A stretch of DNA of 64,000 bases from Verrucomicrobiaceae bacterium (GTDB lineage: Bacteria > Pseudomonadota > Gammaproteobacteria > Pseudomonadales > CAMLJR01), in the NCBI GenBank assembly GCA_028293825.1, contig JAQGNY010000010.1, positions 237,151 to 301,150 of the forward strand. Direction: 5' to 3'. Position numbers and translations under genes: made by a program. The notes under the pieces are model-generated. The model saw only the letters and a list, made by a program, of their open reading frames with translations, was not told the DNA's origin and made no database searches. Below are positions 5,794 through 40,987 of this stretch, piece by piece. Positions within the stretch are counted from its first letter, which is position 1; each line of letters begins with the position of its first letter.

Positions 5794-5874
5794 GTGCAAA
5801 TGCCCGTCGCTGATGGGCGCATATCCACGGGTGCTCGCAGTGCCGGCATCCCCGCTTGTGCAGGTTGATTTCCC

Positions 5875-8418: not shown

Positions 8419-8433
8419 ATAAGGGGTAAAACC

Positions 8434-24457: not shown

Positions 24458-24525
24458 AACGCGAATCTCATACCTGCCAATTATGTAAGGACGCGCTTTA
24501 CCGCGCCCTTGTTTCTATATACCGA

Positions 24526-26109
24526 TTAACCGATAACCTTGTCGAAGTCGAGACCAAAGTCTTCAAATAACACCTGCGCTACGTTGCGTCCCGAACCGCC
24601 GGTCACGCCGCCACCGGGGTGCGTGCTGCCGCCTGCCATATACAGTTTACCGACCGGTGATTTGTATTGGCCGAAACCGGGAACCGGGCGATTGCCACCG
24701 AGTTGCCACGCATACGGACCCATGTGACCGATGTCGCCGCCAACCATCGCTGGATTGCCGCGCTCGATATCGAGCGGTGTGCGCCACGCCATGCCGATAA
24801 TGTTGTCGTCGGTCATGTTGGTGGTGAGCTTGCGCAAATCGTCGACGAAACCCTGCGCCACTTGCTTGCCGATTTCATCCCATTTTTTAGCGCCGCCGTT
24901 TTCCAATTCATACGGCATGAAGGCATATAAATACATCTGACTTTTGCCGGCGGGAACGCGGCTCGGGTCGACTTTATGCTGGCCGATATAACCGACCAAA
25001 TCGCGGCGCGGAATACCATTTTCCTGATCGCGAAACGATTGTTTGAAATCGCTTAAATGCGAGTGCGCCAGTTCGATCCAGAAAAAATCATCGACGCGTG
25101 GGCCGGCTTTATATTTGGGTTCTTCGTACAACGCGAGATGCACGTTCATCGCGCGAATCGTCGCCAGCTTGTTGTTTTTTACGCGGCGCACGAAATGATC
25201 CGGCAAATCGTAGCCGGGCAGCATGTGCGGAAATACTTGCTTGGTGTTGAGCGTCGACACCACGGCTTTCTTCGCCAGAATTTCCTCGCCGGATGTAAGG
25301 ACAACACCGCTCACTTCAGAGCCGTTATGTTTGAATTCTTTGATCGTGCTATTTAATTTAATGACGCCGCCGTGATGCTCCAGGCAGCGCACTAATGAAT
25401 CGGCCAGCGCACCGGAACCGCCGATGGGAATGCCGCCGCCAAATTTGTGCATGAACGGCAGAATGAGATAAAAACCGAAACCGGTGCCGTTATCGAACGG
25501 GTTGGTCATCGATTCCGATGCGTAACGCGCCAATGCAATTTTAATTAAATCGTTTTCGAACCACTCGTCGATTAAATCGAACGCGCTGATCGATTGCGCG
25601 CGCATTAATTCCTGACCGACCGGGCTGCCGTCCATCATCGCGGCTTGCACGCCGGCATTCGGCGGAATGTTGAACATGCCCATCGCCAACATATCGAGGG
25701 TTTGAAACACCTCGTTGCAGAAGCGGCGATAAGCCTGCGCATCGCGCTCCGAAAATTGCGCGATGGACTGACAGGTGCGCTCCATGTCGGTGTAAAACTC
25801 GAGCACACGACCGTCGTCGAAAATCATCGCGGTCATTTTGTCGGGGTTTACATAGCTCAACCCGAACTTCGCCTGCAGTTGCAGTTCGTCGTCGCGAATA
25901 ACCGGGTTGGCTTGAATCATCGAATGCGACACCGAGCATAAATCGCTGTGAAAACCCGGCGCGGCCAGTTCGCTGGTTTTAGTGCCGCCGCCAGCCTTGT
26001 CGCTTTGTTCGACCACGCAAACCTTAATGCCGGCCTTTGCTAAATAACACGCCGCGATCAAACCGTTATGGCCGCCACCGGCGACAACGACTTCGTATTG
26101 TTCCGCCAT
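24526..26109 (-). CDS. FAD/NAD(P)-dependent oxidoreductase, phytoene-desaturase (CrtI)-like family
   Basis: N-terminal dinucleotide fold YEVVVAGGGHNGLIAACYLAKAG...VEQSDKAGGG and C-terminal LYMAGGSTHPGGGVTG. Confidence 0.85.
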   Translation of the reverse strand: MAEQYEVVVAGGGHNGLIAACYLAKAGIKVCVVEQSDKAGGGTKTSELAAPGFHSDLCSVSHSMIQANPVIRDDELQLQAKFGLSYVNPDKMTAMIFDDGRVLEFYTDMERTCQSIAQFSERDAQAYRRFCNEVFQTLDMLAMGMFNIPPNAGVQAAMMDGSPVGQELMRAQSISAFDLIDEWFENDLIKIALARYASESMTNPFDNGTGFGFYLILPFMHKFGGGIPIGGSGALADSLVRCLEHHGGVIKLNSTIKEFKHNGSEVSGVVLTSGEEILAKKAVVSTLNTKQVFPHMLPGYDLPDHFVRRVKNNKLATIRAMNVHLALYEEPKYKAGPRVDDFFWIELAHSHLSDFKQSFRDQENGIPRRDLVGYIGQHKVDPSRVPAGKSQMYLYAFMPYELENGGAKKWDEIGKQVAQGFVDDLRKLTTNMTDDNIIGMAWRTPLDIERGNPAMVGGDIGHMGPYAWQLGGNRPVPGFGQYKSPVGKLYMAGGSTHPGGGVTGGSGRNVAQVLFEDFGLDFDKVIG

Positions 26110-26299
26110 TTTATTTTCTCCTCGACATTCTTATGGAAGGAAACGCAAAGCGATGGAAAGTGATATGAGCAAAACACTTGAGCCATCGCGATGGGTGCGA
26201 AAAGTAGCATCAACCGGCCATCACAACAGCGAACAAAAACACGCTATTCGATAGTTTTCATACTAAGTTGCGCCTCTTGTTCGAGAGCTGCAATTCTTA

Positions 26300-26881
26300 T
26301 TATTGTGCGAGCGGCAAAACGCCATTGAGCCCGCCGCGCGATAGTGCGTTAAACGTCGCGCTCATCTCGTCGGCCGTGTAGGGGAAATCATTGTGTACCC
26401 ACCACGCCAACATGCCGATTAGCGCATTCGATAAAAACTGTACGGCTAATTCGATTTCGCGTTTGTGCTGCGCAGCATCCAAGTGCCCCTGCATCCATTC
26501 GCGAATCTGCACGACCAGCAAATTACGCAAGTGATTGGTGGTAAGACTATTGGCGTCCATATTCAATAACGCGCGTACCATGCGCTTGTGCGTTTGCGCG
26601 CTGTTAAATAATGCAGTGCCGAAAGCGGGGTATTCGCTCGGTGTTTCCTGATGAAGGGCGAATAATTTACCGCCGATGGGCTGCGCCAGATCGCGCTGAA
26701 AACCATCGAGCAGCAAATCGTCCTTGTCGCGAAAATGTGCATAGAAACTTGACCGCGCGACATCCGCACGATCGATAATTTGCTGCACGGTCAATGCGTC
26801 GTAACCCTGTTCGATAATCAACTCGTAAAGCGCGGCGCTAAGTAGTTGACGGGTGCGCGCGATGCGGCGATCGGGTTTCAT
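26300..26881 (-). CDS. TetR-family transcriptional regulator
   Basis: N-terminal HTH YDALTVQQIIDRADVARSSFYAHFRDKDDLL. Confidence 0.9.
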   Translation of the reverse strand: MKPDRRIARTRQLLSAALYELIIEQGYDALTVQQIIDRADVARSSFYAHFRDKDDLLLDGFQRDLAQPIGGKLFALHQETPSEYPAFGTALFNSAQTHKRMVRALLNMDANSLTTNHLRNLLVVQIREWMQGHLDAAQHKREIELAVQFLSNALIGMLAWWVHNDFPYTADEMSATFNALSRGGLNGVLPLAQ

Positions 26882-26889
26882 CGGCTGTC

Positions 26890-26905
26890 CTTTAACGGGT
26901 TAAAG
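26890..26905. promoter_or_regulatory. 16-bp palindrome CTTTAAC-GG-GTTAAAG just upstream of the tetR start (candidate operator or RBS-sequestering hairpin)
   Basis: Perfect 7-bp inverted arms located 9-24 nt upstream of the TetR ATG. One arm overlaps the AAGGA RBS on the minus strand. Confidence 0.35.
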
Positions 26906-27308
26906 CAGAAGTTATTATTAAGGGCTATAGCTTAGGCGTTGCAACAAACGGTGGCCACGGAAATAAAATTACTCCGAGCGCGCCATCCAGCTTAATAGAC
27001 GCGGCGTAATAATTATCTGCGCGTTGGGCGTACTTCTACAGTCGAATATAGAGGATTTGTCTTGGCCGGGCATAGCTATGGCCGACTTTTTAAACTTTAA
27101 CTCTCGGGTATTTAATCAATTCCTAATATTAAATTTATATCTGAACTTTTTTAAAAAAAATGGTGTACCGATTGCCGCGTTATATTTACTCGGCAAGCTC
27201 ATTTTTATGATTAAGTGCCATTTTTTAAGATTACCTATTATTTGAGATGGTAAGCTCGCTGCGAAAATAAATTCCGCAGGTCTCATAAAAACATAACAAG
27301 GAGTAATC

Positions 27309-28097
27309 ATGTCCGCGTTGATTGATTTAAGCAGTCTTTACGATCTTGGTGAAAAAGTAGCGCTCGTTACCGGCGGCGCTGAAGGCATGGGCAAAGAAGT
27401 TTGCCGGTTCTTGGCCAGTGCGGGTGCGACCGTGGCAGTGGCCGATATCAATTTGCCGTGGGCGCAAGATACAGCGCGCGAAATTGTCGAAGCTGGTGGC
27501 AACGCCAGCGCGTATCACGTCGATTTGGCCGCCGAGCAGTCGGTCGTTGATTTACTGCATGCAGTGCGCAAACAGCATGAGCGACTCGATATTTTGGTGA
27601 ATGTCGCCGGCTTGCAAGATCGTGAATTCTTAACGGAAACATCGCTGGCGCTGTGGGATAAATTACACAACGTCAATTTACGCGGGTCATTTTTAACGAT
27701 TCGAGAAGCGGCAAAAATAATGCGCGCCGATGGTCGCGGCGGCCGTATCGTCAATATTTCATCGATGGGTTCGGTGCATCCGATTTTCGAAGGCTTGGTT
27801 GCGTACAACGCATCCAAGGCCGGTGTAAATGGGCTGACGCGCAATGCAGCTTACGAGCTGGCACAGCACGGAATCAACGTGAATGCGATTTTGCCGGGTA
27901 ACACCACCACTGCGGGTCAGGGTCGTACTCCTGGGCCGCCCATCGATATCAGCAAATTAAAAAATCTAACACCGCCGCTGGGGCGCACCGGCAAGGTATC
28001 GGATATTGCCAGCGCAGTGTTATTTTTAGTAGCGCCAGCATCGGAGTGGATTACAGGGCAAACGCTGATCGTCGATGGTGGTCATTTGAATAATTAA
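27309..28097 (+). CDS. Short-chain dehydrogenase/reductase (SDR)
   Basis: TGGAEGMG cofactor motif and catalytic YNASK. AAGGAG RBS. Confidence 0.9.
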   Translation: MSALIDLSSLYDLGEKVALVTGGAEGMGKEVCRFLASAGATVAVADINLPWAQDTAREIVEAGGNASAYHVDLAAEQSVVDLLHAVRKQHERLDILVNVAGLQDREFLTETSLALWDKLHNVNLRGSFLTIREAAKIMRADGRGGRIVNISSMGSVHPIFEGLVAYNASKAGVNGLTRNAAYELAQHGINVNAILPGNTTTAGQGRTPGPPIDISKLKNLTPPLGRTGKVSDIASAVLFLVAPASEWITGQTLIVDGGHLNN

Positions 28098-28160
28098 TGT
28101 TGAGCATAAAACCAGAGTTCTAAAGCAGGCGCGCGTTTCGAGAAATAATTAGCGATTTTA

Positions 28161-28191
28161 AAATCGATGTCGTTTATCGCGACATCGATTT
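28161..28191. terminator. Bidirectional hairpin between convergent SDR and LLM genes
   Basis: Perfect 12-bp stem AAATCGATGTCG / CGACATCGATTT with a 7-nt loop. Confidence 0.65.
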
Positions 28192-28229
28192 ACAGGCGGT
28201 GTTTTTTTAATTAGTTTTTTTCAATGGGC

Positions 28230-29267
28230 TTATTTTTCGGAAGCTTTTCTCGCCGCCGTTTCTTTTCTAACAACGGGTGCTACCTGTGCGGCAAAACGCT
28301 CAATGCCACGCATAACTTCCGTGTGTGGTTGACCGCCGATATCGATCTGACCAAAAAAACGATTCATCCCGAATACTTCGTGTTGCGTTAACAGCTTGTC
28401 GATAACTTCTTGTGCGCTGCCGGCAACCAATGTTCCCTGGGGCGCCAGCATGTGCTCGAATGCTTCGCGCGGCATATCAGCTTTAAACAGCGGTCGCAGA
28501 TACGCGGAATAATATGGATAAAATTGCGTGCGTAGGTGTTCCGAATGCTCCGCGACATGCAGATGTTCAAACGTGGCAACGCGCGCCGCAGTTGGATCGC
28601 GCCCGTTTTCTTGCCACATCTGCCGATATAAATTTATCGAGCGCGCATAATTATTTAAGCTGCCGCCAACCATCGGCACCGCGATCGGAAAGCCCCATGT
28701 AGCAGCGCGTGCAACACTATTTGGCGAAACCGCGCCCATCCATATCGGCAATGATGTCTGCGCCGGCCGTGGTGCTATTTCCGCATTTTGCAGTGCCGAT
28801 CGAAATCGTCCGGACCAGCTCACGCGTTCGTTCTCGTTCAGCTCCGCGAACAGTGCTAACTTTTCGACAAACAGCGCATCGTAATCCTCGAGATCATAGC
28901 CAAACAGCGGAAAGTTATCGGTGAAGGCGCCGCGACCGAAAATAATTTCAACGCGACCATGCGCCACCAAATCGGCCGTCGCGAATTCTTGAAACGTACG
29001 TACCGGATCTGCGGTGCTGATCGATGTCGATGCGCTGGTCAGGCGAATGTGCTGCGTGACGGCGCCAATGGCGGCGAGCATGGTCGCGGTGGCGGAGTTT
29101 ACGTAACGCAGCGAATGGTGTTCGCCGACACCGAACAGGTCGAGGCCGGCATCGTCGGCGAGTTTCGCCGTTTCAAGAATTTGATCCATGCGCTGCTGCG
29201 GTGCAACGGATTTTCCGGTGTGCGGATCTGCAACAATATCGCCGAAGGTATAAATGCCTAGTTCCAT
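28230..29267 (-). CDS. LLM-class (luciferase-like) flavin-dependent oxidoreductase
   Basis: MELGIYTFGD...FGVGEHH...RLTSASTSISTADPVR...EIIFGRGAF is typical of luciferase-like monooxygenase family proteins. Confidence 0.85.
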   Translation of the reverse strand: MELGIYTFGDIVADPHTGKSVAPQQRMDQILETAKLADDAGLDLFGVGEHHSLRYVNSATATMLAAIGAVTQHIRLTSASTSISTADPVRTFQEFATADLVAHGRVEIIFGRGAFTDNFPLFGYDLEDYDALFVEKLALFAELNENERVSWSGRFRSALQNAEIAPRPAQTSLPIWMGAVSPNSVARAATWGFPIAVPMVGGSLNNYARSINLYRQMWQENGRDPTAARVATFEHLHVAEHSEHLRTQFYPYYSAYLRPLFKADMPREAFEHMLAPQGTLVAGSAQEVIDKLLTQHEVFGMNRFFGQIDIGGQPHTEVMRGIERFAAQVAPVVRKETAARKASEK

Positions 29268-29887
29268 AGTTACTGCTTCATTCTGAAAAGTTAATTGGAT
29301 TCAATTATCGGTTGGTGCTGCATTTGCGCACGAAAATTGAGAGCCACGGTATTGAAGTAACGCCACTGTCGCAAGGGCAACGGCGGCTGAGTTTTAAAAT
29401 CCACGCAGTTTACTTGCACTATGGTGCGGTCGGTATGCCATTCGCACTATCGACAGTCAGCTTTTTAATCCTATGTATCAAAAATCATCCTTCTTGTTGA
29501 GTCATCCTTAGTTCCATAAATTTGAACGTCACGAGCCGACATTTATTCTCATCTGTTGTCGCGCTGTCCAGTGCTTATTTATTCAGATAGATCTGTGATT
29601 TACTGCGCTTAATCGAATTGTTCGAAACCGATATCGAGGATTGTCGCGACGGAATACCCGTTGCCAATAAGTTTGGTTGCGAATTTATTGGTGCCGGAGA
29701 TTCACCGGCGGCATGACTCGAGTTGCATCTGTCCGATGGATATAGCGAAACAGGAAGCACCGTGCGTAGCAAAGCTGATGAGCGATGCTTGATAATTCTC
29801 TTGCGCAGTAAAAATGGATTTTTATTTAATGAAGTACTTTTATTAAAAGCTGAACCTCATAAAAAATCCAACTAACGGAGAGACATA

Positions 29888-30403
29888 ATGGTAGATCTGG
29901 CGGATTTCACTCTTAGCGAAACTAAAAAAGCAGAAGTATGTGCGCACCTAACCTCGCGTCAGGCACAGCGTGCACGTGCCTGGATCGCGTTGCAGGAAAC
30001 GTTGAATCGCGGCGAGTTCGATGAGCGTATGGATAATTTCTTCGATCCGAATTTTACCTACGGTAATCCGAGTCGCCCCGATCTGGGCAGTTATGCCTCG
30101 TGGAAAACATCGCCGGCTACGCTTTACAAAGTATTTCCGCCCAGTGCGTATCGTACCTTAGCGGTAACTGCGCGTGGTGATGATGAAATATGGGTGTATT
30201 GTCACCACCACGGCAAGCAAACCGGCGGCCGCTACATGGGCGTCGAACCGCAGGGTCAGGAAATTAACGTCGAGTGGTTTTCCATTGTGACCTTCAACGG
30301 CGAAAAAATTCTGCGGATTTTCAGTATCGCCGATGTGCTCGGTATGTTTATTTCGGTAGGCGCGATCGACAAAAGCAAATTGCCGGTTGATCCGTATAAA
30401 TAA
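29888..30403 (+). CDS. SnoaL-like / ester-cyclase (NTF2-fold) protein
   Basis: FDPNFTYGNP...VFPPSAY...GKQTGGRYMGVEPQGQEINVEWFSIVTFNGEKI matches the ester-cyclase pattern. GGAGAG RBS. Confidence 0.65.
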   Translation: MVDLADFTLSETKKAEVCAHLTSRQAQRARAWIALQETLNRGEFDERMDNFFDPNFTYGNPSRPDLGSYASWKTSPATLYKVFPPSAYRTLAVTARGDDEIWVYCHHHGKQTGGRYMGVEPQGQEINVEWFSIVTFNGEKILRIFSIADVLGMFISVGAIDKSKLPVDPYK

Positions 30404-30604
30404 GTCACGATATTTTAATACAACCTAGTGAATTCGATCTTGATAATGGGTTTTGCAGATGATTGAAAATAATGAGCTGCAAATGGATTGGCGATTAATT
30501 TTTAGGCTGCACAGATTTTTTATCGCGTGCTTTTTATTTTTTAAATAGTAAATTCGGCTAAATACGTTTAACTCAACAAATCATAAAATTCGAGGAGCGG
30601 CACA

Positions 30605-31426
30605 GTGACAGTATCGGCGGGAAGATTGGCGGGCAAAGTAGCGATCATTACCGGCGCCAGTGCCGGTATCGGCGCGGAAACGGCTATTCAGTTTGCCGCA
30701 CACGGCGCCAAGGTGGTTGCGGTCGGTCGCAGTGTCGAGCGCGTGCAACCGATTGTCGATCAAATCAAGGCCAGCGGTGGCGAAGCGTTAGCGGTCGCAG
30801 CCGATATCGGCGATGAAGCGCAAATTATTGCGCTGGTTGAAAAAACCATCGCGATTTACGGTCGCATCGATGTGCTCGACAATAATGCGGCACTGACCGA
30901 TGCGGCTACCATGTCGCTCGACGGCAAAATTGCAGAAATGGATTCGGCGGTTTGGGATCGTGTGCTCGCGGTTAATCTGCGCGGCCCGATGCTATGTTGC
31001 AAATACGTGTTGCCGCATATGCTCAAGCAGGGTGGCGGTTCAATCATTCTGACCGGCTCTGGTAAAGGCACGGAGGGCGATCTCGGTCAGTCCGCATACG
31101 GCGCATCAAAAGCTGCATTAATTAATTTGACGCAGAATCTGGCGACGCAATACGGCAAAGACGGCATTCGCGCCAACATCATGATTATCGGTTTGGTAAT
31201 GACGGAGGGGTTGAATAAAAACTTTCCACCAGCGCTGCAAACATTAATGATTAGCCATCACTTGACACCGTACCTCGGCAAGCCGCGTCATATTGCAGAT
31301 ACTGCTGTTTTTCTCGCGTCGGATGAATCGGCATTCGTCACCGGTCATTCTTTATATGTCGATGGTGGTTTTACCGCGCATTCGCCCGCTGTTGCGGATA
31401 TTCGAAAAATGATTTCTCCACATTGA
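30605..31426 (+). CDS. Short-chain dehydrogenase/reductase (SDR)
   Basis: ITGASAGIG motif and YGASKAA catalytic motif. GTG start with a GAGGAG RBS. Confidence 0.88.
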   Translation: MTVSAGRLAGKVAIITGASAGIGAETAIQFAAHGAKVVAVGRSVERVQPIVDQIKASGGEALAVAADIGDEAQIIALVEKTIAIYGRIDVLDNNAALTDAATMSLDGKIAEMDSAVWDRVLAVNLRGPMLCCKYVLPHMLKQGGGSIILTGSGKGTEGDLGQSAYGASKAALINLTQNLATQYGKDGIRANIMIIGLVMTEGLNKNFPPALQTLMISHHLTPYLGKPRHIADTAVFLASDESAFVTGHSLYVDGGFTAHSPAVADIRKMISPH

Positions 31427-31702
31427 TTGTATCGAGCGCTTGAAAGATTCAAAGTCATTCAGCGCATTTACACAGACGTGACCGCTCCTCATGATCAGAT
31501 CGCGCACTACGAACAATTCGTTTCGCGATTTAAAATTAATGTATCGATTCATATGTTCAAGTATTTCATGCAGCAAATTGTATTAACGATTAAAAAAATA
31601 TTGTGCGAGCGCATTATGGAACGGCAGTCATTGCTATTTTTTTAAAGCCCAGTGATCTAATACGCTGACTGCTCGCAACTAGTCTTGGCTTGAATTCATC
31701 CT

Positions 31703-32056
31703 ATGAAAAAGAAGATTGACTGCGTTGGTTCTTTAGATGGCGGCGATGTATTAATGCGCGATGGGGTCCGTTCCGTGGTTTCGTTGATCGGCGGCAAATG
31801 GAAGCTTGAAATTTTATGGCTGTTGAATCAACGGCTGCATCGTTTTAATGAACTGCGGCGCGCGATCCCCGGCGTAACTCAGCATATGTTGACGGTGCAA
31901 TTGCGCGAACTGGAAGCGGATGGATTGGTGCGGCGAACGATATACGCGGAAGTGCCGCCGCGCGTTGAATATGAGATCACCGAAGAGTCGCGCAGTCTGC
32001 AGCCGGTATTCGATGAGATCAGAATGTGGGCCCATGCGCGCCAGCTGAAAAAATGA
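31703..32056 (+). CDS. HxlR-family winged-helix transcriptional regulator
   Basis: GGKWKLEILWLL...RFNELRRAIPGVTQHMLTVQLRELEADGLVRR...PPRVEYEIT. Confidence 0.88.
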   Translation: MKKKIDCVGSLDGGDVLMRDGVRSVVSLIGGKWKLEILWLLNQRLHRFNELRRAIPGVTQHMLTVQLRELEADGLVRRTIYAEVPPRVEYEITEESRSLQPVFDEIRMWAHARQLKK

Positions 32057-32260
32057 GCTGGGTTGTTAAATGATAGTTCCGCGATGGAGTTTTGGAACTT
32101 AGCTACTGCGTGGAACTAACGCGAATTTACCTGTCTTAGGAAATTCATGTGCGGTTTTTGCTTTTCTAACGTAATCGCTTGCCCGCGCTAGCGTTGAAAG
32201 TTGGTTGTCAGATAATAGGTATAAGATCGCTCCTAGACTTGGCGTTAGGGTCCATCCATC

Positions 32261-32908
32261 GTGCGCGATTTAGTAATAGGCGATATCCACGGTTACAGTA
32301 CTGCATTGGAGAGCGTGCTGGCTGTCGTCAAACCCGACAAAAACGATCGCATCACTTTCCTGGGCGATTACATCGATCGCGGCCCCGATAGCTGCAAGGT
32401 GCTCGATATCTTGATGCGCTTAGGCAAGCGCACGACGACTCGCTTTCTGCAGGGCAATCATGAACGCTTTCTGCTGACTAGCATTGCCGATCCGAGCATG
32501 GAGTCGACCTGGACTAAATACGGCGGCGCATCCTCGCTGAAATCATTCGCGGTTAAACATGCCGCCGAAGTGCCGCGCAGTTACCTGCAGTTTCTCGAAG
32601 GTCATCCATTGTGGATCGAAGATGAAAACTTCATCTTCGTTCACGCTGGCGTAAACCCGAGGAAACCGATGGAGCGTCAGACTGAAGAAGACTTGTTATG
32701 GACGCATCTGAAAGTGCCGCCCTGGCATTATTCGGGAAAAACCGTGGTGTGCGGTCATACCTATGTTGAGCGCCCGGTACTCACTGCAAAATGTTGTCAA
32801 ATCGATACGGGAATTGCGCGCGGTGGTTGGCTGACTTGCGTTAATTTAAACGATTATTCGTTTGTGCAAGCCGACGCAAAAGGTACTGCTCGCGAAAGTC
32901 GCGCTTAG
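32261..32908 (+). CDS. PPP-family metallophosphoesterase (Ser/Thr protein phosphatase 1/lambda-PP-like)
   Basis: GDIHG, GDYIDRGPDS, GNHE, VHAG and CGHT metal-binding motifs in canonical order. GTG start. Confidence 0.85.
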   Translation: MRDLVIGDIHGYSTALESVLAVVKPDKNDRITFLGDYIDRGPDSCKVLDILMRLGKRTTTRFLQGNHERFLLTSIADPSMESTWTKYGGASSLKSFAVKHAAEVPRSYLQFLEGHPLWIEDENFIFVHAGVNPRKPMERQTEEDLLWTHLKVPPWHYSGKTVVCGHTYVERPVLTAKCCQIDTGIARGGWLTCVNLNDYSFVQADAKGTARESRA

Positions 32909-32925
32909 TTTGCGTGCAGCCGCGG

Positions 32926-33567
32926 TTACGATGACATCAGGTCGAAATGAAAGCCAATCGTTAAACACAGAAAGGCGATTATTTTTACCGCTGTGTTGAG
33001 CGTTGGTAGAGCAAGTACCCAGGCCAGCGGTTTTATGATTATCAATGCCAGCAGTCCGGTGATGCATAAAATTAAGAAAGACGATACCGCAGCAATCACC
33101 GGTGCAATCAGCAGCTGCAAAACATAAATCAAAATAAACGCCAGTAATAAATTCAACCACCAGGTCGCGATGGGTGAATATATCCATGCGAACGTTACGG
33201 TAATTAACGACAGTAGCGTTGAGAGATAGAGTAACGGTTCACCGCGAATTTCCTGCCACGTAATTTTTCTCTCACGCACCGCCGCCGCTCTATCGTGCGG
33301 AAAGTAAAAATGATGCAGCCATCCAGATACATTGGCCAATCGAGCGCGTATATCTTTTACAGTGATCAATGCGAGCAAGTACGTACTGGCCTCTCGAATC
33401 CGATCGGGTCCGATTATTTCCAGAATAACTGTCGCACCGCCAATAAACTCCGCAATTTTTCCGGCGCGACCGAGCCATAAAATAGAAAGACCCCATAGTG
33501 TTGCATTGCTGAGTTGAGCGCCGGTGCGCCATTGTTCCCATGCTTGAATCCAGTTCAAATCAGCCAT
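32926..33567 (-). CDS. Hypothetical multi-TM membrane protein (213 aa)
   Basis: ATG with a GGGGA RBS. A soluble-looking N-terminal ~110 aa is followed by about four hydrophobic helices. No recognised family. Confidence 0.55.
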   Translation of the reverse strand: MADLNWIQAWEQWRTGAQLSNATLWGLSILWLGRAGKIAEFIGGATVILEIIGPDRIREASTYLLALITVKDIRARLANVSGWLHHFYFPHDRAAAVRERKITWQEIRGEPLLYLSTLLSLITVTFAWIYSPIATWWLNLLLAFILIYVLQLLIAPVIAAVSSFLILCITGLLALIIIKPLAWVLALPTLNTAVKIIAFLCLTIGFHFDLMSS

Positions 33568-34060
33568 AGGATCCCCAAAAATAATTTTATGTAATTATTT
33601 TTCTAACTATTTTAATTTTTAACTTGCAGTCTTTCGACAGCAACTGCTGATGGTTTTTCGGCTCATTATTTAATCAGGCAAATAATTAGCTAAAGCACGC
33701 TGAGTTTTAAGCGCAGATTTAAAAAAGACGCGGCACCTTTTCGTATAATCAGTGCCATCTCGGATAAATTGTAATTTGCGCTGTTTTCTTAGCAATGCTT
33801 ACGTTGAGTTATTAGTTACATACGTCTTAATTTTGCAACATCCGCATCAAATACTCGTTAGAAAGCGTTTCTCTTTTATTTTTTGCTGAATTTTTTATTA
33901 AGCGCTGACATATTGAGTTTTTTCGCTGTCAGAAATACAGATGATTTCTTTGCGGCGCGATTCGTGCAGTGCCTCGCAAGAGAAAAATCGATTCAGGCAA
34001 AAAATTTTTTCTACGTAAAAAATTCTCGGGCGCAAAAGCCATAATTTAAATGAGGTATTT

Positions 34061-34576
34061 ATGACGATTGTTAGTTTCGATGCGCCGCTCCCTGTTGATC
34101 TATCCGCACTGGGTATATGGCCCCAAAAGATTGGCGAGTTTGCGATTGCCTTCGGTGCACTGGAAGCTGAGACGGTCCGCTATTTACGTCTTTTGGAGAC
34201 GTTCGGCGAACAGGTCGAGTCAGTGCTGTTTCAATCCTTTAATGCCCGCGTCGATTATATTGTTATTGCCATTCATCGCCATTATTTGCTGGCTGCGGAT
34301 GACGCTGAATTATTTGCGCAGACTTGGGCGCAAGCACAACAGCTCGCGGATTGGCGCGATCGCTTGACGCATTTTCGTCTCGAATTTAAATGGAGCGAGG
34401 AGGCTGATCGAGCAGGGCCGCCGAATCGATTGCAGGCTGTTGAGGATGTCACCGGCAACAATGTCGATGCGACGGTGGAGCTCGATCTCGTCAATTTGGA
34501 AGAGCTTATCGCGCGTGCCGGCACACTTGCCTTTAAGTTGTACCGATGGGACGAGGAGTTTGTAAAGAGTAAGTGA
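34061..34576 (+). CDS. Hypothetical protein (171 aa) with an Rx4H HEPN-like motif
   Basis: ATG with a GAGG RBS. Helix-rich sequence; RDRLTH at residues 99-104 (nt 34355-34372). No other recognised family. Confidence 0.55.
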   Translation: MTIVSFDAPLPVDLSALGIWPQKIGEFAIAFGALEAETVRYLRLLETFGEQVESVLFQSFNARVDYIVIAIHRHYLLAADDAELFAQTWAQAQQLADWRDRLTHFRLEFKWSEEADRAGPPNRLQAVEDVTGNNVDATVELDLVNLEELIARAGTLAFKLYRWDEEFVKSK

Positions 34577-34865
34577 TGACAATCTATACGCAGCTATTAA
34601 CCGATTTTTAAGTTATTGGCATTAATCGCGCGTAACGCATTAACTAGCGAACTGTGCCGATCACTAGGGCGTATATGGCGTTCTATCTGCCCAATTTGCG
34701 ATGCGTTAGTATTGGCGATGATTGGTAATCGGCGCGATGCTCTGTTTTGTGTTGGACCTGAAACAATCAAGGGATCACAGCGGTTGGTAAAAGACCATTG
34801 GTCAGAGCGGAGGCCCATGGGTTTGTGTGAGAAACGTAACGCCGCTAACAAAGGATCGTAACGTT

Positions 34866-35354
34866 ATGGAACAAAACATCCACAGTTTCGCCGTGGGCGC
34901 CTCCCTTGTACGCGGCACATTCGCCGCTTTTCTTGTTAAATTTCGCTTAGATGATAACAACGAGTTATTAACCGCATGGAGTAGGGCCCAATTGCCTGGA
35001 TTATTGCGGATTTGTTTAGACTATCAGCAGGAGCTTTTAAGTCGAGGCGTTGTGTTCAATACGTTCCCTATCGAACGTATTCTTCGCGAAGAAGCTCCGC
35101 AGTTTACCAAACGGGACGTGGAGCACTTGCCGATTGCGTCTATTGTAGAAAATGTCTCCAGCGTTCTTCGCAGCGACCAAAAATTAATTTTTACTTTCAA
35201 GCGCGCAACAGTCGCACAACCTGAGTTGGTCGTGCTGGCGCCAAATCAATGTAGCCTGTTGATCGGCTCAATCAGTCAGGTACAGGAAGAGTATGACGAC
35301 GCGTGGATTTCGGATACCTCCACAAGCGGTCAGTATCAATATTCAGCGATTTAA
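34866..35354 (+). CDS. Hypothetical protein (162 aa)
   Basis: ORF with ATG 34866 (AAGGA about 10 nt upstream; GTG 34827 is an alternative). No recognised motif. Confidence 0.5.
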   Translation: MEQNIHSFAVGASLVRGTFAAFLVKFRLDDNNELLTAWSRAQLPGLLRICLDYQQELLSRGVVFNTFPIERILREEAPQFTKRDVEHLPIASIVENVSSVLRSDQKLIFTFKRATVAQPELVVLAPNQCSLLIGSISQVQEEYDDAWISDTSTSGQYQYSAI

Positions 35355-35727
35355 GTCACGTTAATTTATTACTGCGGATGGCATTTTTGAAAATTGTATA
35401 AAATCCGGTTAAATGTTCGCTCTGCAAAAAATCGACACTCGCAGTATTCGCTTCTGCATATAACGCTGCGGTCGAACTCGAAGTAATTGTAAAAATAATA
35501 ATTATCGGGCGAGTTAAAAAATAAATTGCTGCTAATTCATTAGCGGTGAGTTTTGTCGCGCACTTTAATTCATACCGCTGCTCTTTCAGTTCATGTCTAA
35601 CGTTTTTTAGTTAGCCGATAAATCCTGACTGCTTCTAATAACACTTTTTCTCTTTGCTTGATTCCGGTGTGTATTGAGCTTGCTGTTTGGTGCGCTTGGA
35701 AAGGCAAAAAAACTATTCGTCGCAAAA

Positions 35728-35745
35728 CCGTCACGCTCCTGTCAC
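35728..35745 (+). promoter_or_regulatory. Pho box (PhoB binding site) upstream of pstS
   Basis: CCGTCAC-GCTC-CTGTCAC: two 7-bp direct repeats with a 4-bp spacer, matching the CTGTCAT-N4-CTGTCAT consensus, about 160 nt upstream of the pstS ATG. Confidence 0.55.
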
Positions 35746-35905
35746 ATAAGCCTCTTAGTCTCGCAGCCTATCGATTATCGCCGCCTTTAAAGGTGCGCGA
35801 ATGCAAGGCATGGACGCGATGCAATAAGTAACTTCTGAAGTTGCAGAACCAGTGCAGTGCCGATAACCATTCCAACTACTTGCTCGACAAAGGGGATTTT
35901 TCACA

Positions 35906-36931
35906 ATGAAGAACACTGTTTTCTCTCGCCTGAAATTGCATGTTGCCGCCGCAGGCGTGGCATCGATGCTAATGACCAGCGCTTTTGCCGCCGACATTAC
36001 CGGTGCGGGCTCGACCTTCGTTTATCCGATCCTGTCGAAATGGTCGACCACCTATAACGCCAAGACCGGTAGCAAAATTAATTACCAATCGATCGGCTCC
36101 GGCGGCGGTATTGCGCAGATTAAAGCCGGCACCGTAACCTTCGGTGCCTCCGATAAACCATTGCCGCCGGAAGAGTTAAAAGAGGCTGGTCTGGTTCAAT
36201 TTCCTATCGTCATCGGTGGCGTCGTACCGGTGGTGAATTTGGAGGTCGCCAAAGCAGGCGACATGCGTTTTAGCGGCCCGGTATTGGCGGATATTTTTCT
36301 CGGCAAGATCGAGAAGTGGAACGATCCGGCGATTGCTGCACTTAATCCCAGCCTGAGCTTGCCCGACCAGAAAATCACCATCGTGCATCGCTCGGACGGC
36401 TCCGGCACCACGTTCAACTGGGTTAATTATTTGTCCAAAGTCAGTGACGAATGGAAGACCAAAGTGGGCGAGGGCACTTCGGTTAATTGGCCGGTCGGTG
36501 TAGGCGGTAAAGGCAATGAAGGCGTGGCTGCATACGTCAATCAGATCAAAGGTTCGATCGGTTATGTCGAGCTCGCTTATGCGATGCAAAACAAAATGAA
36601 ATACACCGAAGTTAAAAACAAAGCGGGCAATTTCGTCGATCCATCGCTGGCAACATTCCAGGCCGCTGCTGCAAACGCGGAATGGAAAGCGCAGGACTTC
36701 TTCGAAGTTATCACTGACGCTGCCGGTAAAGACTCTTGGCCAATCACCGCGTCGGTATTCGTGATGATGTACAAGCAGCCGAAAGAAGCGACGACTTCAG
36801 CCGATGCGTTGAAGTTTTTCAAATGGGCGCTGAACGAAGGCCAAGCTGACGCCAAAGAGCTGGACTATGTGGCATTGCCTGCTCCTCTCGTCAAACAAAT
36901 CGAAGCTTACTGGGCACAGAACATTAAGTAA
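35906..36931 (+). CDS. pstS: Phosphate ABC transporter substrate-binding protein PstS
   Basis: Signal peptide, ITGAGSTFVYP, YQSIGSGGG, RSDGSGTT motifs. Confidence 0.96.
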   Translation: MKNTVFSRLKLHVAAAGVASMLMTSAFAADITGAGSTFVYPILSKWSTTYNAKTGSKINYQSIGSGGGIAQIKAGTVTFGASDKPLPPEELKEAGLVQFPIVIGGVVPVVNLEVAKAGDMRFSGPVLADIFLGKIEKWNDPAIAALNPSLSLPDQKITIVHRSDGSGTTFNWVNYLSKVSDEWKTKVGEGTSVNWPVGVGGKGNEGVAAYVNQIKGSIGYVELAYAMQNKMKYTEVKNKAGNFVDPSLATFQAAAANAEWKAQDFFEVITDAAGKDSWPITASVFVMMYKQPKEATTSADALKFFKWALNEGQADAKELDYVALPAPLVKQIEAYWAQNIK

Positions 36932-36958
36932 GCCGCTTTTTATGTAGTTTCGTTGGGA

Positions 36959-36988
36959 GAAGCGACTGCCTTTCGGCGCAGCCGCTTC
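36959..36988 (+). terminator. Intercistronic hairpin between pstS and pstC (attenuator or mRNA-stabilising stem, no T-run)
   Basis: GAAGCGACTGCC-TTTC-GGCGCAGCCGCTTC forms an imperfect ~12-bp stem. Confidence 0.4.
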
Positions 36989-37008
36989 ATGCTTGTTGGG
37001 AGTCATTA

Positions 37009-37998
37009 ATGTCGCAGTCACACACTCTGCCGCTTAGCGATGCTTTGCCGCAGGATCCGCGCGAAGAGCGCGACCATTTTCACGATCGGTTATTTCGCTA
37101 CGCAGTGACCGGTTGCGCCACGTTCGTGCTTATCGCGTTGCTCGGCGCCGCGTTCTCCATGTTATGGGGCGGGCGCGAAGCGTTTTCCACGTTCGGGGTG
37201 CAGTTTTTATGGAGCGCCGATTGGGATGCGGTGCAGAAAAAATTCGGCGCGTTGGTGCCGATTTACGGCACGTTGGTTACCGCGTTAATCGCGATGATCA
37301 TTGCGGTGCCGGTCAGTTTTGGAATCGCTTTATTTTTAACGGAAATCGCACCGGCCTGGCTGCGCACGCCGGTAGCGGCGGCGATCGAATTACTCGCAGG
37401 GATTCCATCGATCATTTACGGCATGTGGGGTTTATTCGTGTTCGTGCCGTTTATGGCAGAGCACGTCGATCCTTGGCTGGATGAACATCTCGGCCCGCTC
37501 GCCATTGTCGGCCCGTTATTTCAGGGCGCGCCAATCGGCTTGGGCATGCTCACCGCGGGCATCGTGCTCGGCATCATGGTGATTCCATTTATTTCATCGG
37601 TAACGCGCGAAGTGTTCGTCACGGTACCGGTGCATCTGAAGGAATCCGCTTACGCAGTCGGCAATACGACGTGGGAAGTCGTGTGGGACATCGTGCTGCC
37701 GTATACGCGCTCTGCTGTTGTCGGCGGTATATTTTTAGGTCTGGGTCGCGCGCTGGGCGAAACCATGGCGGTGACGTTCGTACTCGGCAATTCACACCGC
37801 TTGACCGCTTCGTTATTGGAGCCGGGCAATTCGATTGCCGCGACCATCGCCAATGAGTTCACCGAAGCAGATTCGTCGGTGTATTTGTCCTCGCTGATTG
37901 CGCTGGGCTTTCTGCTGTTCATCGTCACCTTCATCGTGCTGGCAGTGGCGCGTTTGATGTTGAGCCAACTGGCACGGCGCGGCGGAACCACGTCATGA
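37009..37998 (+). CDS. pstC: Phosphate ABC transporter permease PstC
   Basis: Multi-TM permease with an EAA-like loop (LKESAYAVGNTTWEVVW). Its stop overlaps the pstA start (ATGA). Confidence 0.95.
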   Translation: MSQSHTLPLSDALPQDPREERDHFHDRLFRYAVTGCATFVLIALLGAAFSMLWGGREAFSTFGVQFLWSADWDAVQKKFGALVPIYGTLVTALIAMIIAVPVSFGIALFLTEIAPAWLRTPVAAAIELLAGIPSIIYGMWGLFVFVPFMAEHVDPWLDEHLGPLAIVGPLFQGAPIGLGMLTAGIVLGIMVIPFISSVTREVFVTVPVHLKESAYAVGNTTWEVVWDIVLPYTRSAVVGGIFLGLGRALGETMAVTFVLGNSHRLTASLLEPGNSIAATIANEFTEADSSVYLSSLIALGFLLFIVTFIVLAVARLMLSQLARRGGTTS

Positions 37999-38873
37999 AT
38001 AACGCCAAGGCCCATTTAAAGAGCGACAACATGAGCATGTGGATGCGTCGTCAATTCACCGATTATCTGGCCAAGGTGCTGGGTACCGCCGCGACCTTGT
38101 TCGGGCTGTTCTGGCTGGCGTGGATCTTGTGGACCACGGTCAGCAAAGGCCTGCCGGCGCTGAAGTGGGAGCTGTTCACGCAAATGACGCCACCGCCCGG
38201 CGCCGATGGCGGTCTGCTGAACGCGTTTGCCGGCAGCATCATCATGAGTGGTCTGGCGGTTTTGATCGGCACGCCGATCGGCATCGCGGCGGGCACTTAT
38301 CTGTCCGAATACGCGCGCTATTCGAAATTCGGCGCCACCATTCGCTTCGTCAACGACATTCTTTTATCGGCGCCGTCGATCGTTATCGGTTTGTTCGTGT
38401 ACGAATTGATGGTGCGGCAGATGGGCCATTTTTCTGCGCTGGCCGGTGCGGTGGCGCTGTCATTTATCGTGTTGCCGGTAGTCGTTCGCACCACCGATGA
38501 AATGCTGCAATTAATTCCATCGACGATGCGCGAAGCGGCGTTAGCGCTGGGCGTACCGCAGTGGAAAGTGGTGCGTCAGGTGCTTTATCGCGCGTCGATG
38601 TCGGGCATCGTGACTGGCGTGTTATTGGCGCTGGCGCGGATTTCCGGCGAAACCGCGCCACTGCTGTTCACCGCGCTCAACAATCAATATTGGGCGAGCA
38701 GCCTGCTCGATCCGATGGCCAATGTGCCGGTCGTCATTTTTCAATATGCGATGAGTCCGTATGAGTTTTGGCATGCGCTCGCGTGGGCTGGCGCCTTCGT
38801 GGTGACGATGTTCGTGCTGTTACTCGGTATCGCGTCGCGCTGGCTTCTTCTTAAGGGAAAAAATCATGAATGA
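37995..38873 (+). CDS. pstA: Phosphate ABC transporter permease PstA
   Basis: Permease with [16 protein letters not shown] loop; operon context. Confidence 0.95.
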
Positions 38874-39684
38874 CTTAGCTGCAGTAAAGCAGAAGAACGT
38901 GGCAGCCGAGGCGGGTTCCATCGCCACTGCCGATGCGAAAATTACCGCGCGCAATTTGAATTTTTATTACGGCAGTTCGCACGCGGTGAAGGGCGTTAAT
39001 TTGTCGATTCACAATAAGCGCGTAACCGCTTTGATTGGACCTTCGGGCTGCGGGAAATCGACGCTGCTGCGTATTTTCAATCGCATGTATGCGATCTATC
39101 CGAAGCAGCGCGCGGACGGCGAGTTGTTATTGGATGGCGTCAATGTGCTCGATGGCAATTATTCGATCAATCGCTTGCGCACCAAGGTCGGTATGGTTTT
39201 CCAAAAACCGGTGCCGTTCCCGATGTCGATTTACGACAACGTCGCCTACGCGATTCGGCATTACGAAAAATTATCGCGCGGCGAAATGGATGGCCGCGTG
39301 GAAGAAGCATTGCGCAATGCCGCGCTGTGGGACGAAGTTAAAAATAAACTCAATCAAAGCGCATTGGGTTTATCGGGCGGGCAACAGCAGCGTTTGTGTA
39401 TTGCCCGCGCCATCGCATTAAAACCCGAAGTATTACTGTTGGACGAACCGACATCGGCGCTCGATCCGATTTCCACCGCCAAAGTGGAGCAATTAATCGG
39501 CGAGTTGAAAACGCAGTACACGGTATTGATCGTTACGCACAACATGCAGCAAGCCGCGCGCGTATCGGACACCACCGGCTTTATGTTTATGGGTGAGCTG
39601 ATCGAATTCGGCGCGACCGAAGATATGTTTACGCATCCAAAAAATCAAAAAACAACAGACTACATTACCGGGCGTTTCGGTTAA
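38866..39684 (+). CDS. pstB: Phosphate ABC transporter ATP-binding protein PstB
   Basis: Walker [10 protein letters not shown], signature LSGGQQQRL, Walker [12 protein letters not shown]. Confidence 0.97.
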
Positions 39685-39714
39685 CACCGCGCTGCCATTT
39701 CGGAGAAATTTTTT

Positions 39715-40443
39715 ATGACGCCTCCCCATATCGTCAAAGCTTTCGATCAAGAATTACAAACGCTCACTAGCAGCATCGGTGCCATGGGCGATTTTGCCGG
39801 CGCGCAATTTTCGGATTCCGTGCAAGCCTTACTGCGCGGCGATTTAGTGCTGGCGCAGCGCGTTATCGATCAGGATCGCCAACTCGATGCGTTACGCCGC
39901 GATCTTTCCGCAGCGGCCGCTTCGGTGATTGCGCGCAGACAACCGATGGCGACGGATCTCGACGAAGTGTTATCGGATTTTCGCATCGTCGAAGAATTGG
40001 AGCGCATCGGCGATCTGGCGAAAAATATTGCCAAGCGCGCGACAGCGGTAAGCAGCGCTAATTTTCCGCTAGAAATCGTGGAAATGCTGGAGCGTTTATC
40101 CGCTCTCGCCGCCGCGTTGCTGAAGGGCGCGCTCGAAACTTATGTAACGCGCGATGCCGAACAAGCGATTGTGGTGCGGCAGCAGGATGAGGAGATCGAT
40201 GAATTACACACTTCGATTTTTCGCGATATCGTATCGCGCATGACGGCCGATCAGTCGCAGGTTATCGATTTTGTGCATTTATTATTCTGCGCAAAAAATA
40301 TCGAACGCATCGGCGATCACGCAACGCATATTGCAGAGGCCGCCTATTTCACCGTTACCGGCCAACGGCCGCCGCTGGAAAGACGACGGCTCGACCAAAG
40401 CAGTTTAACGAAAAGTGCTGACACTGTTTTTAACGTGGAATAA
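39715..40443 (+). CDS. phoU: Phosphate signalling complex protein PhoU
   Basis: Duplicated PhoU repeats (ELERIGDLAKNIAKR, NIERIGDHATHIAE). Confidence 0.95.
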   Translation: MTPPHIVKAFDQELQTLTSSIGAMGDFAGAQFSDSVQALLRGDLVLAQRVIDQDRQLDALRRDLSAAAASVIARRQPMATDLDEVLSDFRIVEELERIGDLAKNIAKRATAVSSANFPLEIVEMLERLSALAAALLKGALETYVTRDAEQAIVVRQQDEEIDELHTSIFRDIVSRMTADQSQVIDFVHLLFCAKNIERIGDHATHIAEAAYFTVTGQRPPLERRRLDQSSLTKSADTVFNVE

Positions 40444-40493
40444 AGCACAGCTTTGAGCGTGGCATAAGCAGGACGCAGAGGTTAAATGAATAT

Positions 40494-40525
40494 AAAAGCG
40501 TGCCGATTACGGTGCGCTTTTTTTT
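40494..40525 (+). terminator. Rho-independent terminator of the pst-phoU operon
   Basis: Stem AAAGCGTGCCG / CGGTGCGCTTT (two G-U pairs) with loop ATTA, followed by a run of eight T. Confidence 0.75.
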
Positions 40526-40619
40526 ATTAAAAATAATAATGCCTGATCATTTTCTGCCACTTAAGCAAGCGTGCAGCGATTCGATAACAATCGTTCGCAG
40601 CGTGAAACTAATAGTCGAA

Positions 40620-40860
40620 TAAAAATTAAATAAGAGGCGACGAAAAAATCGTGCGGAGTCTTGGTGAGGATCAAATAAAATTCGAGAGTGGGCGGCTCGC
40701 ACAAGAATTAAAGAGGTGACTGCTACGAAAATTAAGGTCAGTACATGCGGGAGTTAATGTAGTGCAGCAGTTTAGAAAAGCAGTCAGTGCGGGAGTTTTA
40801 AAAGTCAGTACGAGAATGAAAAATTAGCTGCAGCGCCGTGAACTGTAAACGCTTAGTGAT
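40620..40860. repeat. Purine-rich non-coding tract with degenerate direct repeats (GTCAGT x3; RTGCGG(G)AGT x3)
   Basis: GTCAGTACATGCGGGAGTT at 40737-40755, GTCAGTGCGGGAGTT at 40783-40797, GTCAGTACGAG at 40804-40814, GTGCGGAGT at 40651-40659. Hand count of 118 purines in the 180 nt 40621-40800. The track lists no ORF of 60 aa or more. Confidence 0.45.
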
Positions 40861-40896
40861 CGCCACTTGCCTCGCCACCTAAGTGGACAAAGTAAG

Positions 40897-40987
40897 TGGC
40901 GGTGAGAGAGGGGTTCGAACCCTCGATACGCTATTAACGTATACACGCTTTCCAGGCGTGCTCCTTCAACCGCTCGGACACCTCACC
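40897..40987 (-). tRNA. tRNA-Ser (anticodon GGA), with long variable arm and encoded CCA
   Basis: The reverse complement reads GGTGAGGTGTCCGAGCGGTTGAAGGAGCACGCCTGGAAAGCGTG...GAGGGTTCGAACCCCTCTCTCACCGCCA. It has a 7-bp acceptor stem, a CT-GGA-AA anticodon loop and a GGTTCGAAC T-loop, and is near-identical in layout to E. coli serX/serW-type tRNA. Confidence 0.95.

Follow-up and report, generated by a model that had tools for sequence, protein, structure and literature searches.

The AT-rich patch at positions 32057-35727 of the 64-kb window (the window being the whole stretch of contig JAQGNY010000010.1 that was analysed) raises the question of what its genes are, and whether they belong together. 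A sequence-only reading of the window had described four or five orphan genes wedged between an hxlR regulator gene and the pstS promoter, and had taken them for a compact, foreign-looking operon of the kind found in defence, toxin-antitoxin (TA) or abortive-infection cassettes. The present analysis leads to another answer, which we consider probable: the patch is a mosaic in which four accessory genes, unrelated to one another and including one for a probable stand-alone HEPN nuclease, lie at a variable junction upstream of pstSCAB-phoU, and it is not one system. The genes do not co-occur elsewhere, their orientations are mixed, the spacers between them are long, their base composition is heterogeneous, and no defence model matches them; thus nothing links them functionally.

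Four genes in an AT-rich patch

The open reading frames (ORFs) of the patch are the following, with GC content and codon score.

32261-32908, plus strand: PPase, a PPP-family phosphatase gene; GC 52.0%, host-like; score 0.27, coding
32926-33567, minus strand: TM213, a membrane protein gene; GC 46.4%, an outlier; score 0.11, own frame clearly best
34061-34576, plus strand: orf171; GC 51.7%, host-like; score 0.30, clean frame discrimination
34616-34861, plus strand: an ORF that is not a gene; score -0.29, negative in all six frames
34866-35354, plus strand: orf162; GC 47.2%, an outlier; score 0.13, own frame clearly best

The scores come from a codon log-likelihood model trained on 33 confident genes of the window, which have a mean score of 0.40 and a standard deviation of 0.06. 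The coordinates and orientations of the ORFs, and the convergence of the PPase and TM213 genes, are as they had first been read. The count of four or five genes settles at four, since the ORF at 34616-34861, which had been listed as a possible gene, is negative in every frame and therefore spurious. The same model, run over six frames of the spacers, found no small coding ORFs or decayed genes. The orf171 start has a GAGG Shine-Dalgarno sequence 7 nt before its ATG, and that of orf162 has AAGGA 11 nt before. We suggest that the four genes, for a lambda-type PPP phosphatase, a small membrane protein, orf171 and orf162, would be transcribed separately, and that they would have been acquired independently or be specific to the lineage, at a junction that varies between related lineages. 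All four are very sparsely distributed; the word “orphan” does not fit orf171 and TM213, which belong to small families.

The orf171 family and its conserved motif

A word-indexed search of 5.8 billion proteins with orf171 returned only the query itself. The family came to light only in an exhaustive phmmer scan of 1.84 billion representatives, with 22 relatives that have E-values between 1e-9 and 4e-4, share 24-37% identity and are mostly 160-180 residues long. A pattern scan found 65 metagenomic loci with family members. About 90 sequences were gathered in this way; an alignment (A3) holds 52 sequences, and 67 family ORFs were used to count motifs and co-occurrence. No relatives were found in a family-profile scan of 2.9 million viral contigs, nor on plasmids by tblastn. 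The family is cellular and sparse, and its genes are solitary.

Five residues are invariant in the alignment (G25, E35, R63, W89 and R99), and N100, H104 and P106 are at least 90% conserved. There is a single strongly conserved block, (W/F)RNRIAHNP, and the pattern RNxxxH(N/S)P is present in 59 of the 67 family ORFs. The counterpart in orf171 lies here:

34355-34372, plus strand: codons of the Rx4H motif R99-D-R-L-T-H104 of orf171, corresponding to RNRIAH in the family

In this region orf171 reads W-R99-D-R-L-T-H104-F-R. Arg and His are kept here, the residue after the Arg is still one of the permitted polar ones, and the N-P that follows in the family is lost. orf171 is thus divergent, yet intact, within a family of helical proteins of about 170 residues that had not been classified before.

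A predicted HEPN ribonuclease

The conserved block of the family has a well-described parallel. In HEPN proteins helix 3 ends with an Rx4-6H motif, in which N, D or H typically follows the Arg, and an acidic residue further upstream is often conserved; the Arg and the His are needed for the RNase activity of RNase L, PrrC and RloC (PMC3710099). Both features are found in orf171, which has an Asp after the Arg of its Rx4H motif, and the invariant E35 upstream, although a low-confidence structure model places E35 in the first predicted helix and not the second. In that model the helices span residues 20-48, 55-77, 82-118 and 134-170, so that there are four long helices with the motif in the third, which matches the HEPN description of PMC3710099 as far as a weak model (pLDDT, the predicted local distance difference test score, of 52) can show it.

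The family as a whole points in the same direction. When the 52 aligned members were scanned one by one against Pfam, 22 sub-threshold matches fell on six families of the HEPN clan (RiboL-PSP 10, MAE_28990 5, AbiU2 3, Swt1 2, Cthe2314 1 and HepT 1), with unrelated families appearing as scattered singles. All but one of the RiboL-PSP matches end at profile position 159, and all the MAE_28990 matches end at position 173. These endpoints fall on the H-N-P residues of the members, and the matches are therefore anchored on the motif. The best of them, from the member L111, covers positions 97-190 of the 191 in the RiboL-PSP profile at E 2.5e-5, and scores 24.7 bits against a cut-off of 28.4.

Taken together, these similarities make it fairly likely that the orf171 family adopts the HEPN fold, and orf171 itself is most likely a stand-alone HEPN-type endoribonuclease. 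Such an enzyme would be independent of metal and would use R99 and H104 for cleavage, with D100 and the invariant E35 assisting. Genes of this kind usually encode stress- or phage-triggered, RNA-cleaving toxins or abortive-infection effectors, and by analogy with the solitary HEPN genes that lie near restriction-modification (R-M) loci, orf171 may have a similar role.

There are, however, several observations that weigh against this prediction. A HEPN match is absent for orf171 itself at E <= 0.1, no member of the family reaches a Pfam gathering score, and sequence and profile searches of the PDB with orf171 and the family found no HEPN structure. The single-sequence AlphaFold2 model has low confidence (pLDDT 52, predicted template-modelling score 0.39), and Foldseek found no match for it at E < 0.001. 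The motif of orf171 deviates from that of the family, with N100 replaced by D and N105-P106 by F-R. Its closest relatives, P0010 (at L085) and P0019 (at L086 and L087), have replaced the motif His altogether and read RERLTRRP and RLKLALRP; with the His lost in both, the orf171 subgroup may be decaying or repurposed, or may be losing or changing its catalytic function. The protein is also acidic (isoelectric point 4.6), which is unusual for an RNA-binding enzyme.

Neither NCBIfam nor PHROG has a name for orf171 or its family. The ToxN_toxin model gave weak matches to two members (L143, residues 102-140, E 0.002; L139, residues 107-134, E 0.17), in the loop just after the motif; these are probably spurious.

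Genomic context of the orf171 family

None of the neighbouring genes is conserved throughout the 67 loci of the family. Among the 120 neighbours in the 19 longer loci, those that recur are Mrr (3), DNA methylases (3), NA-iREase1 (2), Fic/DOC (2), XRE helix-turn-helix proteins (2) and proteins of IS200/IS21 insertion sequences (IS) (3), and these R-M- and IS-type genes are mixed with housekeeping genes. In one soil clade, ten contigs share synteny (L127, L128, L130, L133, L134, L137, L141, L142, L150 and L151): the orf171-family gene lies 40 nt 3' of gcvT-gcvH and is followed by a convergent gene for a protein of about 200 residues, which has an HNH-like “HIDHIIP” motif and no Pfam match. The arrangement looks like a small insertion into the glycine-cleavage operon. 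The apparent conserved partners of the soil clade are gcvT and gcvH themselves, and reflect synteny and not a functional partnership.

The defence character that had been proposed for the patch thus holds in part. It is favoured by the HEPN motif of orf171, which is typical of abortive-infection and TA toxins, and by the R-M and IS genes near family members; against it, the idea of a cassette lacks support, and none of the five patch proteins matched the known anti-phage systems of PADLOC-DB 2.0 at E <= 1, so that the PADLOC check suggested along with the proposal came back empty. The same database gave only two isolated matches for 23 family members, Cas12c and LmuA, in one member each.

Nor do the other genes of the patch accompany the family. 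At the 67 loci there is no orf162-like gene, no TM213 and no PPase partner, with the exception of a distant PPase homologue in L118, a metagenomic contig of 178 kb. This homologue (2001-2657, minus strand) is 32% identical to PPase and lies about 5.3 kb from the orf171-family gene (8001-8486, plus strand). The pair is the sole recurrence of any two of the patch gene families, and it is probably coincidental.

orf162 and the question of a partner

For orf162, too, the word-indexed search of 5.8 billion proteins returned only the query. The protein has no match in Pfam, PADLOC, PHROG, NCBIfam or the PDB, and its single-sequence AlphaFold2 model is poor (pLDDT 41). With its codon score of only 0.13, one might suspect a chance or decaying ORF here and, less readily, in TM213. 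We regard this as very unlikely. The own frame of orf162 is clearly the best of six, its Shine-Dalgarno sequence is correctly spaced, and its residues 1-98 are collinear, from residue 1 onwards, with the N-terminus of an annotated plasmid protein, WP_057447598.1 (27% identity, E 2e-4 database-wide; tblastn against plasmids, NZ_LT985194). TM213, for its part, has relatives that share invariant blocks at 29-58% identity. The plasmid protein is a hypothetical protein of 281 residues without a Pfam domain, and is encoded beside an IS21 element on a mobilizable plasmid of Pseudomonas syringae; the same region of a sister P. syringae plasmid also carries a RelE/ParE-XRE TA pair. No HEPN gene adjoins the plasmid relative. 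orf162 is best described as a near-orphan acidic protein, whose N-terminal domain appears to occur on P. syringae plasmids as well.

The position of orf162 invites the thought that it forms a two-gene TA or abortive-infection module with orf171, in which orf171 would be a HEPN RNase toxin and orf162 a novel partner with a neutralising or sensing role. The two genes are adjacent on the same strand, each with its Shine-Dalgarno sequence and with no terminator-like site between them; both are lineage-restricted; HEPN toxins commonly need a partner (PMC3710099); and the accessory region of the plasmid that encodes the sole orf162 relative, beside IS21, also holds the RelE/ParE-XRE pair in the sister plasmid. 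The gap of 289 bp, however, far exceeds that of typical TA pairs, and an orf162-like gene is present at none of the 67 family loci, just as a HEPN gene is missing beside the plasmid relative. orf162 has no MNT or other antitoxin domain, and the differences between orf171 and orf162 in GC content (51.7% vs 47.2%) and codon score (0.30 vs 0.13) suggest separate histories. We therefore find such a module quite unlikely. Nor was there support for an antitoxin hidden between the two genes as an RNA or a repeat: the 289-bp gap has no tandem repeats, no Rfam match, and an RNA folding z-score of 0.09.

A bolder version would see in the (W/F)RNRIAHNP family a new stand-alone HEPN-type family of toxins or abortive-infection proteins, unlisted in the defence catalogues, which at this locus may have recruited orf162 as a partner and so given rise to an unseen two-gene HEPN module. 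This we put forward as a speculation, and an unlikely one.

The phosphatase and the membrane protein

The first gene of the patch is the least puzzling. The 215-residue PPase scores 61.1 bits with Pfam Metallophos (cut-off 21.5, E 2.5e-16), and its translation has the PPP motifs GDIHG, GDYIDRG and GNHE, in agreement with its first assignment to the PPP family. It matches phrog_246, the NinI-like Ser/Thr phosphatases, at 4e-45 and is about 33% identical to the phage versions; the NCBIfam matches to ApaH, PrpE and PrpA/B are all below the equivalog cut-offs. Its relatives in the PDB (2qjc, 1g5b) include a putative Ap4A hydrolase and lambda phosphatase. Judged by these similarities, PPase is an ordinary bacterial PPP enzyme of the lambda NinI/PrpA-PrpB type, predicted to act as a Ser/Thr or a diadenosine-polyphosphate phosphatase.

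TM213, whose gene is convergent with that of PPase and unrelated to it, has 213 residues. By hydropathy, an N-terminal region of about 110 residues is followed by about four transmembrane helices in residues 111-212. The word-indexed search found only four relatives among the 5.8 billion proteins, at 28-58% identity, and none was found on plasmids by tblastn. The alignment of the family (A5) has the invariant blocks GR.GK, EIIGPD and a C-terminal GFHFDLL(A/S)S, and there is no match in Pfam, PADLOC, NCBIfam or PHROG. The relatives occur in unrelated settings, such as a position after FtsJ and QSregVF_b genes, and none of them has a phosphatase or a HEPN-like gene beside it.

It is at this point that a single multi-gene defence system made of PPase, TM213, orf171 and orf162 has to be weighed. 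The genes are clustered compactly in the lowest-GC stretch, one of them has a nuclease-type motif, a phosphatase and a membrane protein could serve as signalling or effector parts, and in L118 a PPase homologue does lie about 5 kb from an orf171-family member. Yet no pair of the genes co-occurs at the 67 orf171-family loci, at the loci of the TM213 relatives or at the plasmid locus of orf162; the patch has three transcription directions or units, with a convergent pair and a divergent spacer of 493 bp; its composition is heterogeneous; and PADLOC gives no match. A single system of this kind is extremely improbable. The idea of a compact operon or cassette is unsupported on much the same grounds: the genes do not co-occur elsewhere, a 289-bp gap separates orf171 from orf162, which also differ in composition, and PPase and TM213 are convergent and unrelated.

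The junction upstream of pstS

When orf171, HxlR and PstB were looked up for exact matches, SRR13312995 was the sole sequencing run to appear, with DNA 100% identical, and there were no sister strains. In a set of genomes with one representative for each species, the best match to PstS reaches 84% identity and lies outside any synteny, and none of the genes from the 8 kb upstream in the window is present at 80 reference pstS loci. Nearer relatives were taken from the 90% cluster of PstC (PstS 87-88% and PstC 90-91% identical). The blastn homology to these relatives (L158-L165, about 80%) spans 35888-40433, from 18 nt before the pstS ATG to the end of phoU, and stops on both sides; pstSCAB-phoU is the only block conserved with them.

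What stands 5' of pstS differs from one lineage to the next. In L159, L160, L164 and L165 it is a GH2 glycosidase gene, and in L162 and L163 it is HlyIII with small genes. L158 and L159 have identical PstC and share their downstream synteny, while in L158 a sugar-acid cluster of about 8.5 kb (locus positions about 1-8900, with genes for DHDPS, GFO_IDH_MocA, aldehyde dehydrogenase, GntR, MFS, ILVD_EDD and SGL) lies between the GH2 gene and pstS. Here a presence/absence polymorphism has arisen recently at the very junction where the patch of the window lies. In all, four different gene sets are found 5' of pstS among lineages with PstC at least 90% identical, and since the upstream sets differ by lineage, the junction is variable in the clade and the patch is accessory. 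The comparison with related genomes that the sequence-only reading had proposed supports an accessory patch: neither hxlR nor any patch gene is found near pstS in the nearest relatives or the 80 reference genomes. The flanks had been taken as conserved core functions. This is true of pstSCAB-phoU and not of the left side, where hxlR and the preceding SDR, SnoaL, luciferase-like monooxygenase (LLM) and TetR genes are accessory too, as they are absent from the relatives.

A point against so simple a view of the junction is the distance to the relatives, which share only about 80% identity in DNA and have no synteny with the window 3' of phoU either. With identity this low and the downstream order lost, the variability could partly reflect general rearrangement. 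A second variable junction lies on that side, at 40433-40987, next to a tRNA gene: the relatives there continue with PPK2, and in the window come a spacer of 453 bp, a minus-strand tRNA-Ser(GGA) and then genes for MOSC, metallo-beta-lactamase-fold, VanZ and FMN-reductase proteins.

Base composition, spacers and signals of mobility

The remaining features of the patch and its flanks are the following.

31703-32056, plus strand: hxlR-family transcription regulator gene, the left neighbour (Pfam HxlR, 7e-30)
33568-34060: divergent spacer between TM213 and orf171, 493 bp; GC 34.5%, the most AT-rich stretch of the window
34577-34865: gap between orf171 and orf162, 289 bp, enclosing the spurious ORF
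35355-35905: spacer before pstS, 551 bp, with the pstS promoter region and the Pho box
35906-40443, plus strand: pstS-pstC-pstA-pstB-phoU (by Pfam), the right boundary and the sole block conserved with the relatives

The patch as a whole, compared with the whole window, has a GC content of 45.8% against 53.1%, and ranks lowest of 604 sliding windows of 3.7 kb, so the AT-richness that first drew attention to it is real. Coding sequence, however, makes up only 62.5% of it, compared with 86.8% of the window, and the mean GC of the genome's intergenic DNA is 42.4%; much of the AT-richness is thus spacer DNA. The spacers of 493, 289 and 551 bp account for much of the low GC, about a third of the effect. 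The composition of the patch is foreign-looking in two of its genes only. Gene GC in the window has a mean of 53.9% and a standard deviation of 2.8; TM213 (the lowest) and orf162 are the two lowest-GC genes, about 2.5 standard deviations below the mean, and PPase and orf171 are host-like.

This bears on a reading in which nothing in the patch is foreign or related to genetic conflict: the genes would be vertically inherited, fast-evolving and lineage-specific, and the low GC would come from long spacers, rich in promoters, within an accessory region whose genes are loosely packed from about 24000 onwards. Accessory genes with long AT-rich spacers do start there (TetR, two SDRs, LLM, SnoaL and HxlR), and the spacers of 24004-31702 are similarly long. 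The low coding share, spacers at the usual intergenic GC of about 42%, the host-like PPase and orf171, the absence of mobility genes, tRNA and repeats, and the loss of synteny on both sides of the pst operon all agree with it. What speaks against it is the low GC of TM213 and orf162, the association of the orf171 family with R-M and IS genes, and the distribution of the four genes, which are patchy across unrelated metagenomes and not restricted to a clade. We hold this reading to be unlikely, and prefer the mosaic of accessory genes. Elsewhere in the window, a 1154-residue protein (20539-24003, minus strand) combines a GH18 chitinase-like domain, a polysaccharide deacetylase and a family-2 glycosyltransferase/chitin-synthase-like domain in one chain; it is an unusual synthase-deacetylase-hydrolase fusion, possibly for an exopolysaccharide of the poly-N-acetylglucosamine type.

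The 493-bp spacer presumably holds the promoters of TM213 and orf171. Its length and AT-richness are exactly as first described, down to the 20 G+C in 33601-33660. Sigma-70-like sites are found on the minus strand at 33637-33609 and 33622-33594, though the total of such sites in the spacer is no higher than chance, and neither this spacer nor the 289-bp gap holds an Rfam family. An inverted repeat, CTGACA-N14-TGTCAG, at 33907-33932, about 130 nt 5' of orf171, could be an operator. In line with the Pho-regulated pstS promoter of the first reading, a Pho-box match, CCGTCACGCTCCTGTCAC, lies at 35728-35745, 161 nt 5' of the pstS ATG, and is the sole match in the window.

As had been noted from the start, the patch has none of the usual marks of mobility. 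There is no integrase or transposase among its ORF translations by Pfam, and no tRNA inside or adjoining it, the single tRNA of the window, a tRNA-Ser (40897-40987), lying on the far side of the pst operon. A search of 8 kb gave no convincing flanking repeat. A pair of A-rich 26-nt direct repeats, 77% identical, at 33995-34020 and 35702-35727 (spacing 1707 nt) brackets orf171-orf162 and is placed like a target duplication, but its quality is at chance level and no better than that of eight other pairs in the same 8 kb. The runs of small same-strand ORFs in L099, L110 and L119 had brought up the idea of integron cassettes, which was dropped, as a home-made regular-expression and pairing screen for attC sites (RYYYAAC ... 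GTTRRRY with paired arms; not the covariance model of IntegronFinder) found none in the patch and 13 family loci. With no integrase, tRNA or repeat, the acquisition of the genes is inferred and not shown, which counts against the mosaic as well.

Significance

In this genome, what had been suspected to be a novel system becomes an accessory patch with annotated genes, at a pstS-upstream junction that varies between related lineages. The more general gain is the orf171 family itself, about 90 sequences that are unnamed in Pfam, NCBIfam, PHROGs and PADLOC, and that carry the HEPN RNase catalytic signature. If the protein were confirmed to be an active nuclease, with a phenotype in phage defence or as a toxin, the defence catalogue would gain a further solitary HEPN effector, and there would be a way to approach a gene that word-indexed homology searches miss. 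In practical terms, the importance is modest.

Comparison with known systems

The patch shares with classical genomic islands and integron cassettes its deviant composition, the sparse distribution of its cargo and its absence from relatives, the last seen against relatives only about 80% identical in DNA; it differs from them in having no integrase or transposase, no adjoining tRNA, no flanking direct repeats and no attC sites. PPase resembles the PPP phosphatases of the lambda NinI, E. coli PrpA-PrpB and ApaH type in its GDxHG, GDxxDRG and GNHE motifs, its length of about 215 residues and its strong PHROG and Pfam matches. It is set apart by an identity of about 33% to characterised and phage members, and by scores below the NCBIfam equivalog cut-offs, so that its substrate may be either protein-phosphate or Ap4A.

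What orf171 has in common with the HepT toxins of the HEPN-MNT type II/VII TA systems is its small size, its HEPN motif and a predicted action as an RNA-cleaving toxin. Those systems have an adjacent, co-oriented gene for a minimal nucleotidyltransferase (MNT), a neighbour that is missing both in the window and at the 67 family loci; orf162 has no nucleotidyltransferase domain or other Pfam domain, the family loci have no conserved neighbour, and a weak HepT match is found in only one of 52 members.

The known families closest to the orf171 family are RiboL-PSP-HEPN (PF18735), MAE_28990/MAE_18760 (PF18737) and AbiU2 (PF18734) (Anantharaman et al. 2013, PMC3710099). The orf171 family differs from these in that its matches stay below the Pfam cut-offs (at best 24.7 vs 28.4 bits, for PF18735), in the absence of an L-PSP fusion and of ParB, Sel1 or methylase operon partners (neither L-PSP nor ParB is among the 120 neighbours), and, for orf171 itself, in the D in place of N after the Arg and the missing N-P after the His. 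Other features are alike. The R-N-x-x-x-H motif is predicted to stand at the end of the third long helix, before a loop and a final helix in an all-helical protein; the length of about 170 residues, the invariant acidic residue upstream and the proximity to R-M and mobile genes are the same; and the sub-threshold profile matches are anchored on the motif. Rather than a demonstrated new system, the orf171 family is most likely a new family within the known HEPN superfamily.

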